DNA of 50,462 nt from Candidatus Moanibacter sp. (lineage in GTDB: Bacteria; Verrucomicrobiota; Verrucomicrobiia; Opitutales; UBA2987): contig CBDCEW010000019.1 in NCBI GenBank assembly GCA_965215885.1, positions 1 through 50,462 of the forward strand. Direction: 5' to 3'. Positions 46,268-50,462 of the stretch are shown in pieces. The notes under the pieces are model-generated. The model did not search any database. It saw only the letters and a list, made by a program, of their open reading frames with translations, and was not told where the DNA came from. Position 1 is the first letter of the stretch. Each line of letters opens with the position of its first letter. The position numbers and the translations under genes were made by a program.

Positions 46268-47094
46268 AGTATACCCAAGGATGGCTCCGCAGTACCACTG
46301 ATGGGAAACCAATTGAACTTAGGTTGGAAGCCAACCTTGCTCCCTTCGTGTATTACGACAAGGTTCGGGACGAGGTTTCTCCGATTGAAACCGGAGTAGG
46401 TAGCGGCACAGTTGGGTTGGGAAACTTGCCGCACCCCACTTTCGGCAGAAGCCTCTGACGGGATTAAGAGGGTGGACAGGATACCTGGATTCCTCTACCT
46501 ATCTCGAAAGGAGGTATGAAGTGTCCGCGACGATTCCTGAAGAATTCCGTGATTTATTTGAGAAAAAGGGATTTGCACATCTGGCGACCCTGATGCCGGA
46601 TGGAAGACCGCAGGTGACACCGGTGTGGTGCGATTTTGACGGCGATCACGTGTTGATCAATTCGGCCAGAGGCCGAGTTAAAGATCGAAACATTCGGCGG
46701 GATCCGCGTGTAACCGCCACCATTCAAGATCCGGATAATCCATATCGGTATCTGGAAGTGCGGGGACGGGTAATCAAAATTGAGGAGGAGGGAGCAGATG
46801 AACACATCGATAAGCTGGCCAAGAAATACATGGGTGTAGACACCTATCCTCTCCGCAGCGAAGGGGAAGTGCGCGTGATTTATCGAATTGAACCGGAGCG
46901 CATTAGCTCAATGGGTTGAGTCGTCTGCCGGTGTGCACCGGACGGGAGAAGGCAGTTTCTACGGGTTAGGCCCTTAGGTCCTTACGTGGAGAAGAGAATT
47001 GAATCCCGGCGCGCCGGGAGAAACAGAGAAAAACGGAGAGGAATAAAAGAGGGAGAGTGTGCCCACGGATGGCTCCGCAGTACCACGGATGGAA
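46268..47094 (+). repeat. ~39-bp direct repeats flanking the PPOX gene
   Basis: Identical 20-bp core ggatggctccgcagtaccac at 46279-46298 and 47067-47086. Confidence 0.7.
46521..46919 (+). CDS. PPOX-class (split beta-barrel) putative F420-dependent oxidoreductase
   Basis: AHLATLMPDGRPQVTPVW, KDRNIRRDPRV, NPYRYLEVRG, HIDKLAKKY; strong RBS AAGGAGGT upstream. Confidence 0.88.
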   Translation: MSATIPEEFRDLFEKKGFAHLATLMPDGRPQVTPVWCDFDGDHVLINSARGRVKDRNIRRDPRVTATIQDPDNPYRYLEVRGRVIKIEEEGADEHIDKLAKKYMGVDTYPLRSEGEVRVIYRIEPERISSMG

Positions 47095-47323
47095 AGAGTG
47101 AAAGTGGAAAGGGAGAGGGAGCAACGAATTGGGACTGTGAGAGCATTGAAAGCACAATCTTTTGACTATCAGCTTGTTACAATCTGAGTTAGGAAAAAAC
47201 GTGTTCAAAAAAACAAGAATTGGATGGATTGTAGCACGGAGGACCCCGGAGAATGTTACTTGGAAAGGTAGAAAGTTGGGAGGAGTTCATTTCGCCTGCT
47301 CTGCCATACGGCAGAGTGGAAAA

Positions 47324-47401
47324 CGGTCAGAGAAGTATTGACGAGAGCGTTTTCTCTTGGCTCAAAGTCAGATCGCGCTCTCGTCAATACTTCTCTGACC
47401 G
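47324..47401. repeat. Perfect 26-bp inverted repeat with a 26-nt spacer
   Basis: cggtcagagaagtattgacgagagcg (47324-47349) and its exact reverse complement at 47376-47401. Confidence 0.85.
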
Positions 47402-47971
47402 CTTGAACCGCGCTCCGCGCGAGGCGAAGTCGACTCCTCCCAATTTTCTACCCCGTCAGGAAACTTCGGATTCTTCTGATCCATTGTTATCGATGCAGCG
47501 GTCGGTGCGGAGTGGGTGTCACCAGGGCTTGAGCGACGCCCCCGAAGCAGAGCAAGATCGTAAATTCGCCTTGCCATTATCCACCCAAGGCGCCTCTGTG
47601 TGCCTCTGTGGTTCTCTGTGGCCCTCTGTGACCCCTCTTCTGTCTTATCAACCTTCCACTTTGGTTGCGTCCGTATGCTGCCTTAGGGATCGGCGAGGTG
47701 CCTAGTTGCGTTGAAACATCTGCCCGCATATTTCAGCGCTTTGGCGCAAACGGATTTAATCGGATGATGAAGAAATGGTTGCGATTTTGGGGAGAGATAC
47801 GCCGTGCCTTCGCTGGAGTTTACGCCAAAGCTCACATCCACAAGCGCGGCGTGGCTGCGTTCTCGCGGAAATTCCGCGCGGTTACGCATCCCGGCACGCC
47901 GGGACGCCCGCACGGAATTTCGCTCGGGCCTTGCCATCCACGCTTCTGAAAAGTGTGAAATCACCGGACTA

Positions 47972-48475
47972 ATGACTACGCGGGAAGAGAAAATACGGCC
48001 GGTCTTGATCGTTTCCGCCTTGAATGGCTGGAGCGTGATCCTGTTGGCCGGCCTCTGTGCGATCGCGGCGCTTTTTCTGGGTAGCTGGTATGGATTTATA
48101 GTAGGGGCGGCGATCACAGCGTCCGGAGGGATGGAGGTTATTGGCCGCCAGAAATTGAAGGGCGGAAGCATCGCAGCAGGGAAATGGTTATGTGGGAGCC
48201 AGATCTGGCTTTTCGTCGTTATTGTATGCTATGTCACGTTTGAACTGTGGACGTTTGACTCAACGCGGGCGTTGAATCGGTTGCCCACGGAACTGGTTGA
48301 GACTTATCGCCTGATGGTAGGAGTGGATTCCGCTACATTCACCAGGATGATGGGCGCAATCTTTCGGACCATTTACGTGGCGGTGCTGGTTATCTCGTTC
48401 ATCTATCAGGGAGGACTCTGGTTTTTCTATCGGAAGTGTTGTAAGGGTCTTGAGATGAGTCCGGACAAGGCTTAG
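47972..48475 (+). CDS. Hypothetical membrane protein (about 4 TM helices)
   Basis: From ATG 47972 (MTTREEK) there are several hydrophobic helices; the upstream ORF extension lies in repeat DNA. Confidence 0.75.
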   Translation: MTTREEKIRPVLIVSALNGWSVILLAGLCAIAALFLGSWYGFIVGAAITASGGMEVIGRQKLKGGSIAAGKWLCGSQIWLFVVIVCYVTFELWTFDSTRALNRLPTELVETYRLMVGVDSATFTRMMGAIFRTIYVAVLVISFIYQGGLWFFYRKCCKGLEMSPDKA

Positions 48476-48500
48476 CCTGGAAATCTGCGAGAAAAGCGGG

Positions 48501-48618
48501 CTAGGATTCCGAAATTGGGAAATCCAGCGGACTCGCGACTTCCTTGATGGAGTGGCTCTCAACGGTGTGCTTATAAATTATGGTGGTCCGCACATCGCTG
48601 TGCCCAAGGAGCTGCTGA
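48501..48618 (-). pseudogene. intI: 3' remnant of an integron integrase (tyrosine recombinase)
   Basis: QQLLGHSDVRTTIIYKHTVESHSIKEVASPLDF matches the IntI C-terminal pattern QELLGHxDVxTTMIYTH...SPLD; oriented away from the attC array. Confidence 0.78.
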
Positions 48619-49151
48619 TTAGACTGAGCTTTCCCGACACCCTGAGCGAAGTCTCCTTTCGGGATCAGCTCAATATGGCCGCCTCGAAGCGCTGGAATGT
48701 GTATGCGAAACGGCCCTTCGCCGGCGTCGACTCGATCATCGTCTACATGGGGCGCTACACGCATCGGGTAGCGATCAGTCTGAAGCGAATCACGGCAGTC
48801 GGGCAAAGCGGTGTAACCTTCGATTATAAAAACTATCGTGAGGGCGTCGATTGCCAGGCAAGCGAGATGGAGGGGGTCGAGTTCGTGCGGCGCTTCCTTC
48901 GCCATGTCCTGCCCAGGGGTTTTCAGCGCATCCGCTACTACGGCTGTTGCCGGGCCGAGGCGGTGAAACAGATCGGCCAGGGATTGAGCGAACAATGGCT
49001 GAAGCTGGCCCGCCGTATCGAGGCGCTGGCGGCGGTGCTCTTGCAGTTGCCCCCGCCCGAAGAGTCTGTCGGACTGCCCTGTCCCCGCTGCCACGAAGCC
49101 ATCCTGCAACCAGCCGGCTTTTGTCTCTTTGCGCCCTGGGATACCTCCTGA
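48619..49151 (+). pseudogene. IS91-family (Y2 rolling-circle) transposase, C-terminal fragment
   Basis: WNVYAKRPF, YMGRYTHRVAIS (YxxxY), VTFDYK.YR, EFVRRFLRHVLPRGFQRIRYYG, CPRC; N-terminal zinc-binding and HUH parts absent. Confidence 0.87.
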
Positions 49152-49159
49152 GCAAATAA

Positions 49160-49396
49160 GGCTTACTTGACAGCCGTTATTACCACACCTTGGCGAAGAG
49201 CGTCGCTAAGGCGCACAATGGCATTGCCCGGATAGGAAAAATTTACGAAGATGGACTCGAAAAGATGACAGATTTCAACGCTCTTACCCGCAACTACTTC
49301 AAGAAAGATAAAATTCACAGTGACAATATCGCTCCCGCACTCTTGATCCCCGAAGCAAAAGGCAGAGCAAAACCCAATACCCGCGGGATCATTTAA
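49160..49396 (+). pseudogene. Probably 5'-truncated gene of the first visible integron cassette
   Basis: Open frame 49160-49396 without a convincing start; its TAA lies in the R'' box (ATTTAAC) of the attC site. Confidence 0.5.
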
Positions 49397-49494
49397 CGAG
49401 GCGTTGGAGCGAACGCGGCGACATTCATGGAGGCTTCTTATAGCACACAGGACTTCGTCGCTCTCGGGCTGCGTCGCTGAACTTAACGTTATGC
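49391..49494 (+). mobile_element. Integron attC site 1
   Basis: R'' ATTTAAC, L'' TTGGAGC, imperfect inner stem, L' GCTGAA, R' GTTATGC; 104 bp. Confidence 0.82.
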
Positions 49495-49590
49495 AGGATT
49501 GACGAGCAAGAACATCAATTGGCTTGTCAGTAGAATGAAGTCTCACATTTCCAAAACTACAACCACACTTTCATCGGAACCAATTTTACT

Positions 49591-50016
49591 ATGAATCCCA
49601 TCGCAAGGAACATTTTGGCGGTAATTGTCGGTTTTGTCATTGGCAGCGTGGTCAATCTTGGATTGGTCAATATTGGTATGTCAGTGGTTCCTCTTCCCGA
49701 GGGCGCTGACGTCTCCACAATGGAAGGCCTCCGCGAGAGCATGAGGTTGTTTACGCCGGCAAACTTCATATTTCCGTTCCTGGCCCACGCGCTCGGAACG
49801 CTCACCGGTGCTTTCGCCGCTGCCAAGCTCGCGGCCAGCCACCACATGAAGTTTGCAATTGGCATTGGCGTTAGTTTTCTGATCGGCGGTATTACGATTG
49901 TCTTCATGTGCGGTGGTCCCGTGTGGTTCATCGCATCCGACCTATTACTGGCGTACATTCCAATGGGATTTCTTGGAGGCCTCCTTGCCCGCGGGAAGAG
50001 ACCTCAAACTGCATAA
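49591..50016 (+). CDS. Integron cassette gene: small 4-TM hypothetical membrane protein
   Basis: 141-aa hydrophobic ORF between two attC sites; stop codon inside R'' (GCATAAC). Confidence 0.85.
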   Translation: MNPIARNILAVIVGFVIGSVVNLGLVNIGMSVVPLPEGADVSTMEGLRESMRLFTPANFIFPFLAHALGTLTGAFAAAKLAASHHMKFAIGIGVSFLIGGITIVFMCGGPVWFIASDLLLAYIPMGFLGGLLARGKRPQTA

Positions 50017-50111
50017 CATTCATTGCAGCCGACGTGGATTGGCCGTCGGCGCTAGTCATGAAATCGATGTCAACTGCGGCCAATCCACGCGGCTGAATTC
50101 GATCGTTAGGC
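50011..50111 (+). mobile_element. Integron attC site 2
   Basis: R'' GCATAAC is the exact complement of the GTTATGC core opening this cassette. L'' TTGCAGC pairs with L' GCTGAA leaving one extrahelical base; stem cg(a)cgtggattggccg / cggccaatccacgcg; R' GTTAGGC. Confidence 0.93.
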
Positions 50112-50133
50112 ACTAAACGTCGCAGATTTTACC

Positions 50134-50462
50134 ATGGACGCTAAAGCATCCCGAAAAATCGTGCTTGTTTCAGGTGCCCAGGGGGCCGGGAAAACAACGC
50201 TTGCTGGGCCGCTTGCAGACGCGCTGGGATTTGCTCTTATTTCGAAGGATCACATCAAAGAAGCGCTGTTTGACGCGCTAGATGGATCTCCTGGAGATCT
50301 CGCTTTTTCAAGGAAGGTTGGAGGTGCCTCAATGGAACTACTATGGGTGCTTGCAAACCACTGTCCGAACGTTGTCCTTGAAGCGAACTTCAGGTATCGA
50401 AGCGACTACGAAAGGACTCGTATCAGTGCGCTTCAGGGAATATTGACGGAGGTATATTGTGA
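50134..50462 (+). CDS. Integron cassette gene: P-loop kinase/AAA-family ATPase (partial, runs off the window)
   Basis: Manual translation MDAKASRKIVLVSGAQGAGKTTLA...ISKDHIKEALFD...VVLEANF; starts 23 bp after attC2; absent from the ORF track because it has no stop in the window. Confidence 0.85.
   Translation, partial: MDAKASRKIVLVSGAQGAGKTTLAGPLADALGFALISKDHIKEALFDALDGSPGDLAFSRKVGGASMELLWVLANHCPNVVLEANFRYRSDYERTRISALQGILTEVYC

Follow-up and report, generated by a model that had tools for sequence, protein, structure and literature searches.

Clusters of attC sites that adjoin an intI pseudogene are known, though not common. In PMC4889954, intI pseudogenes are placed near 15 of 279 CALINs and an insertion sequence (IS) next to 38%. 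Other mobile elements exploit integron arrays: PMC9229058 describes IS1111-attC elements and group IIC-attC introns as targeting attC and mentions ISShvi3, next to an attC in a Shewanella integron, in passing as a new cassette structure. The IS1111-attC and intron insertions interrupt the attC, mostly backwards. ISShvi3 we take to be a two-gene element with a recombinase. The IS91 family (IS91, IS801 and IS1294) and the ISCR elements, the latter treated in PMC8876359, have Y2/HUH transposases, and ISCR1 also occurs in integrons. There it follows the 3′ conserved segment without being a cassette. In IS91, oriIS and terIS are marked by the tetranucleotides GTTC and CTTG.

Here, we analyze a stretch of 50,462 nucleotides (the window), which is the entire contig C19 of the 6.36-Mb draft genome of a Candidatus Moanibacter sp. 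(105 contigs, 90.3% complete, 5.5% contamination). In the reading that we prefer, and to which we give a probability of roughly 0.7, its 3′ end is what is left of a chromosomal integron after a deletion that likely extended from intI, of which the last 38 codons survive, into the middle of an IS91 transposase gene, itself probably a cassette with the first attC site (attC1) as its end. The locus is a fossil of a known type. What it adds is a probable recombinase-less IS91 clade packaged as cassettes, a little-described variant. Our search, mostly of open papers, found no study of recombinase-less IS91 cassettes, and supplements may hold cases; the accessible text of PMC7923331, PMC8527097, PMC9345347 and PMC11023631 contains nothing on them.

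The comparison with described systems brings out both likenesses and differences. The locus resembles a CALIN next to an intI pseudogene, as described in PMC4889954, in having two attC sites on the same strand (attC1 sub-significant and in register), a divergent intI remnant, which as a 38-codon tip is the only intI on the contig, and an intact intI elsewhere in the genome. It differs in that the first "cassette" is a broken IS91 unit, in that one attC is weak and in that the contig end, which is also the window end, truncates the array. With IS91 and ISCR elements the unit shares the Y2/HUH transposase (PF04986, NF033538); however, in our reading its ends are an integron core and an attC, with no clear oriIS or terIS tetranucleotide to mark the end, and, unlike ISCR1, the unit is a cassette. 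ISShvi3 differs from it in two respects: the window's clade is without a recombinase, and complementarity between R′ and R″ is exact in several genomes. In contrast to the attC-targeting parasites, the unit has its own attC, sits forward at the crossover point and leaves the array functional.

At the window end, none of the assembly contigs searched overlaps, and contigs from two public runs reach ∼0.3 and 1.3 kb past it. No Rfam family matched anywhere in the window. Upstream of the integron remnant lie an F420-dependent PPOX-class oxidoreductase gene (46521-46919; TIGR03618 above cut-off) and three dispersed non-coding repeat families (47233-47690, a long palindrome; 47722-47961; and 47020-47095), which have 65, 18 and 36 blast matches in the genome, with 8, 9 and 27 of these spanning at least 60% of the length. 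The repeats are MITE- or REP-like. A 28-bp stretch at 48479-48506, which extends over the intI stop, has a second copy at C104:284682-284709, following a housekeeping gene, and may be an old integron border.

The remnant begins with the 3′ tip of a long-type integron integrase gene (48501..48618, minus strand). Its 38 codons (48617-48504) and stop (48503-48501) read QQLLGH...IIYKH...SPLDF and retain the last catalytic His and the Tyr, while the remaining catalytic set and the IntI-specific insertion are deleted; the tip is a pseudogene fragment. The best NCBIfam model is TIGR02249, integron integrase (E 5.9e-8), ahead of XerD (1.8e-4) and XerC (1e-3). Among 25 candidate proteins, 24 were longer relatives of the tip, mostly of the long IntI type (399-483 aa). 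The best of them, P0121, is 86% identical over 36 aa and scores 383 bits on TIGR02249 (cut-off 265), a cut-off passed by all seven full-length relatives tested (367-395 bits). The nearest named homolog comes from a Verrucomicrobiota genome. At the DNA level, an intI remnant in another genome, G006, is 80% identical to the tip over 96 bp, and because this match stops at 48618, the break point is fixed there. The G006 remnant (L018 1100-1620) is a long-type intI with a large internal deletion and sits within a truncated gene that is presumably racemase-like. Two public runs, X1 and X3, have common substitutions at 48553 and 47980; since the variant at 48553 gives the residue of intact IntI relatives, the window allele has either drifted further or contains an error.

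Across the break, the plus strand (48621..49151) retains 176 C-terminal codons of an IS91-family transposase gene (Y2/HUH), which appear in the ORF list as a 199-aa frame. The fragment matches PF04986 (E 1.7e-28) and positions 209-354 of the 356 of NF033538 with 117.9 bits, just below the cut-off of 125 because it is incomplete, and it is 50% identical to residues 209-372 of the transposase P0001 (389 aa). It keeps YMGRY (YxxxY) and the C-terminal CxxC, whereas the HUH motif and the N-terminal zinc domain, which exist in full-length relatives, are gone. The intI and transposase genes, on opposite strands, are both without 5′ ends at a single joint, 48618..48621, where intI homology ends and transposase homology starts. 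Neither clear microhomology nor an intact GTT core was found at this junction, and an IntI event at a secondary site was considered as its origin, but GATTAGA is not an intact core and the microhomology is unclear. The assembly yielded no intact IS91 transposase, a set of 40 relatives no undeleted orthologous locus, and the genome contigs searched with the transposase fragment alone no locus. On another contig, a second decayed IS91 transposase piece lies at G000:C3:14428-14571, and a separate element end (26 bits on the element-end model) lies on the other strand at G000:C3:16684-16761.

The preliminary description had recognized the last ∼38 codons of an IntI-like gene and proposed a chromosomal integron stripped of Pc, attI and the 5′ part of intI, with a CALIN-like array left behind. 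The tip and its grouping with true IntI as opposed to XerC/D are borne out, an intact intI does exist elsewhere in the genome, and the reading as a remnant is supported. What the description overlooked is that the 530 bp between tip and array are a transposase fragment; the break runs into this gene, and the first attC is most likely part of the transposase unit and does not close an ordinary cassette.

Behind this unit, cassette 2 (49489..50105, plus strand, 617 bp) is delimited exactly, as had been stated, by GTTATGC at its opening (49488-49494) and GCATAAC at its closing (50011-50017), which are exact complements. Its ORF (49591-50016) encodes a 141-aa hydrophobic protein from a large unnamed family, with at least 7906 of 8000 scored candidates at E ≤ 0.001 and the closest others 92% identical among the matches listed; no Pfam, NCBIfam or PADLOC family matched it. 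attC2 (50011..50111, plus strand; crossover G|TT at 50105/50106) has R″ and R′ cores, paired L boxes, an extrahelical G and an R″-L″ spacer of 4 nt instead of the usual 5. The attC2 bottom strand folds at z −4.5, with none of 200 shuffles as good. Cassette 3 (50106..50462, plus strand) is cut by the contig end and has an ORF from 50134 for a P-loop kinase-like AAA_33 protein (PF13671, E 3.1e-6). A promoter scan returned three sites where 1.5 would be expected, and the cassette strand had none of them.

Both attC sites were scored with two covariance models that exclude the window's sites and rest on MAFFT alignments and short calibration: R1, built on 18 sites of class 1 integrons, and R2, which combines 15 of those or similar sites with 20 from other contigs of this genome. 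attC2 is the top match of the window in both (27.3 and 28.8 bits, E 1.9e-4). In both, the runner-up among distinct sites across the 50-kb window is attC1 (49391..49494, plus strand; R″ 49391-97, L″ 49403-10, L′ 49476-82, R′ 49488-94, crossover G|TT at 49488/49489), which keeps the register of cassette 2. However, its scores of 9.7 and 12.7 bits (E 2.9 and 0.85) are not significant, and its fold has z −0.36, with 72 of 200 shuffles as good. Its cores and spacing are canonical (5 nt, L″ with an extra G), with one mismatch between the L boxes. On the element-end model R3, attC1 ranks second in the window with 10.2 bits and attC2 is not listed; this is the direction to be expected if attC1 is an element end, but the score is not significant (E 0.8). 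Thus, of the two well-formed attC sites claimed previously, home-built covariance models and folding uphold attC2, while attC1 falls below significance. As to simpler tools, a strict attC pattern scanner missed attC2 and a loose one was noisy (93 matches).

Comparison with relatives of the transposase nevertheless indicates that attC1 most likely closes the transposase unit. In a tree of 33 transposases (327 columns, omitting the long or partial G337, G434, G213, G230, G521, G661 and G695a and several near-duplicates), the window falls in a clade of nine rows (SH-aLRT 96, UFBoot 99), and a quick tree of 49 rows agrees on this clade (support 97). All three clade members with known DNA context (G232, G063c and G375) lack an upstream recombinase; the evidence on DNA context comes from these three members, not from the closest proteins, P0001, P0002 and P0006. 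Each lies in a cassette-like unit. The G063c cassette runs from GTTAAAT to ATTTAAC (1671 bp) and that of G375 from GTTATAT to ATATAAC (1546 bp), while the core of the 1415-bp G232 cassette is complementary to its R″ at six of seven bases; in G063c, G375 and G448, a recombinase-less cassette of another lineage, core and R″ are exactly complementary. The distance from stop to R″ is 239 bp in the window, 243 bp in G375 and ∼300 bp in G063c, with ∼200-300 bp overall for the three relatives. More broadly, an R″-type box follows the stop at a distance of 195-320 bp in 28 of 37 related elements (39 minus two with too little downstream DNA; some are close kin); control intervals gave 8/37, 5/37 and 3/24. 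The 195-320 bp interval was picked after the data were viewed.

attC1 and the G063c transposase cassette have the same R″ and L″ boxes, and this 15-base box pattern occurs in none of 400 other genomes of the phylum sample and is absent from the viral contigs searched. The local alignment score between the 3′ regions of the window and G063c was matched by 1 of 500 shuffles with the boxes and by 105 of 500 without them; outside the boxes, the 3′ region has no significant likeness to that of G063c, G375, G232 or G448. The 12 nt upstream of attC1, a profile window picked after the data were viewed, score 6.3 bits on an element-end profile, a value reached by none of 28 other attC sites of the genome and by 0.2% of random sequences, and attC2 scores −9.0. 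The motif is missing in G063c and G375 (−5.0 and −3.5).

The copies of these elements in other genomes end in a similar manner. In G063, 12 of 31 matched copies were examined, and in every one of them divergence sets in immediately past an attC-shaped end that closes in GTT; copies in G146, G448, G232, G389 and G020 diverge at or a few bases from G|TT or G|AT. In relatives' copies, an attC-like hairpin thus precedes a terminal G|TT or G|AT, and the window's clade follows no clear tetranucleotide rule. In G232, an intI above cut-off is followed by ∼270 bp, an A-rich attI-like site, a cassette for a 385-aa transposase and a second copy behind an attC, and this order is the unbroken analogue of the window layout. 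All five genomes tested that hold cassette-like elements have an IntI above cut-off. In G448, the recombinase-less transposase cassette, which is from outside the window's clade, accounts for six of the 46 segments of cassette size, always with a host attC in front of it, and other cassettes occur at most twice. The positions of transposase cassettes, at an attI-like site and following attC sites, are compatible with excision and integration by IntI, as judged from sequence, without proving it. At 159 loci of distant IS91 relatives (38-49% identical to P0001; largely Alphaproteobacteria by title), no canonical attC was found at E < 0.1, and because the model may miss non-canonical ends, this result bears on canonical sites; the link of IS91 units to arrays is therefore not general. 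A hairpin heuristic for element ends was discarded, as it was positive for 25 of 36 elements but also for 15 of 36 reverse-strand controls.

Several further observations concern these relatives. In G152 (L292 15588-15648), the left end of a two-gene IS91 element is the R″ of an opposite-strand attC, i.e., the element is inserted backwards, and three IS91 copies stand in a row next to intI. Tandem partial repeats of the element right end follow some copies (L027, L030, L036 and L037 in G063; L255 in G448) and are possibly scars of rolling-circle copying or repeated excision. The attC of the transposase cassette is interrupted in G375 (L285 7780-9240) and G063 (L220 18190-18610), presumably, to go by motifs, by an IS110-like gene and a HicAB-like pair, respectively. 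Many of the closest transposases (P0001, P0002 and cluster members; P0013) are on contigs of 1.5-1.7 kb, the size of a recombinase-less cassette, and many two-gene elements are on contigs of 2.52-2.54 kb; both observations are circumstantial.

Between the transposase stop and attC1 lies the 239-bp 3′ region of the unit (49152..49390, plus strand), which contains an open frame of 78 codons that terminates at a TAA within the attC1 R″. This frame is probably not a gene. It matches no Pfam, NCBIfam or PADLOC family, the ESM Atlas gave no named family for it or for the cassette 2 protein, and among 1.84 billion representatives it has one close singleton and one repeat-driven match; relatives have incidental open frames of 53-71 codons at the same position. 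A short hairpin at 49155-49182 was considered as the element end and dropped, as the relatives' ends lie 300-350 bp behind the stop.

How the transposase and attC1 came to lie together could be explained differently. An unrelated IS91 element might have landed near attI in the integron of the preliminary description, with 49177-49488 as an independent small cassette that opens with GTTATTA and carries a gene for 42-68 aa. There is a GTT core at 49176, the 78-codon frame stops inside R″ and has one called homolog (51 aa, 76% identical, ending on the same residues), and breakage of integrons by IS is common, in keeping with the share of CALINs adjoining IS in PMC4889954. However, GTTATTA agrees with only four of the seven bases of the complement of ATTTAAC, the frame is without a protein family and is of the kind that relatives carry incidentally, and both the boxes common with G063c and the 239-bp distance would be coincidence; we therefore think this account improbable. 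Hardly better placed, and in our judgment also unlikely, is the idea that the lost unit was of the two-gene form, a tyrosine recombinase plus transposase of ∼2.5 kb that uses its own recombinase to insert at integron core sites, and that the recombinase gene was deleted too. A recombinase does lie upstream in 24 of 34 loci of relatives in the phylum, several of the other ten being cut by contig ends; the ends of such elements are attC-like hairpins located at G|TT or G|AT, and the motif upstream of attC1 resembles theirs. Against this, the three members that could be read within the clade of the window are without a recombinase. The spacing of attC1, moreover, is canonical, as at the ends of the G448 and G063c cassettes, which have no recombinase, whereas many ends of two-gene elements combine shorter spacers with perfect stems.

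Two other alternatives question the joint or the tip, and we regard both as very improbable. That the joint is an assembly chimera could be suspected from the draft state and contamination of the assembly and from the fact that one of the four runs examined bridges it: run X3 shows a gap over 48612-48820 (depth 2), and neither X5 nor X7 covers the joint. Yet a contig of run X1 runs unbroken through 47932-50462 with two substitutions relative to the window, and since X3, from another study, has the same two differences, X1 is unlikely to be the source assembly; the public run contigs report neither an alternative joint nor an alternative allele. Least credible of all is an origin of the tip from XerC/D or an IS91-associated recombinase. 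The tip is short, lacks the IntI-specific insertion and gives weak matches to Xer models, and 10.1101/542381 names IS91 recombinases as the closest homologs of IntI. But the proteins to which the tip is 78-86% identical score above the TIGR02249 cut-off and have the same C-terminal motif, the single IS91-associated recombinase that was tested reaches 170 bits and is without this motif, and IS recombinases share the strand of their transposase, whereas the tip is on the opposite one. The relatives' identity, their TIGR02249 scores and the motif largely refute this origin.

We therefore return to a deletion that joined intI and a transposase cassette, and suggest the following scenario. The original order would have been intI (minus strand), Pc and attI, possibly other cassettes, the transposase cassette, cassette 2 and cassette 3. 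Because the 5′ end of the transposase cassette is deleted in the window, we infer its start and its lack of a recombinase from relatives: it would have measured ∼1.5-1.7 kb, beginning with G|TTAAAT and continuing through tnp and 239 bp to attC1, and would have entered at a G|TT core via IntI. A later illegitimate deletion of at least ∼2.0-2.4 kb would then have taken ∼90% of intI (∼1.0-1.25 kb), Pc and attI (∼0.27 kb, judging by G232) and the 5′ half of the cassette (0.76-0.84 kb, judging by G375 and G063c). As a consequence, the locus would no longer be able to capture cassettes or to make integrase or transposase. Cassette 2 may still be excisable in trans, by recombination of attC1 with attC2, if the IntI encoded on contig C100 is expressed and the weak attC1 folds.

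The genome that harbors the locus is full of broken integrons. Its intact intI (C100:128290-129222) scores 432 bits, has the catalytic residues and encodes a protein ∼40% identical to the IntI type of the tip; more intI fragments are present on C105 and C100. Model R2 found at least 25 matches on nine contigs (150 of 602 candidates scored), many of which are its own training sites. At C100:110000-129222, the intact intI adjoins an IS-riddled array, and the further intI fragments and many attC clusters lie on C100, C105:320000-327938, C4:1-14000, C49, C80, C90 and C91. One 124-bp attC is identical on C4 and C100, and another identical attC is found on C49 and C90.

Tentatively, the clade could consist of selfish, self-amplifying cassettes: IS91-type elements that dropped their own recombinase, are copied into single-stranded DNA circles by the HUH transposase, and whose joined ends fold into an attC that the host IntI pastes into attI or attC. 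We consider this possible, although we would not bet on it. It is chiefly the six copies in G448 that suggest amplification of a cassette by its own transposase, and repeated integration by IntI could also explain them.

The wider interest of the locus is that it points to intact elements, in G232 and G448, that package an IS91 transposase like a cassette without a recombinase; in G375, the transposase gene is intact and the attC interrupted. If the transposase is needed for spread, these would be self-copying cassettes linking two single-strand DNA mobility systems. If the self-amplifying reading is true, rolling-circle transposition and integron recombination would be combined in one cycle, hinting at how cassettes are born. 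The finding thereby bears on two open questions, the origin of cassettes and the breakup of arrays into CALINs.
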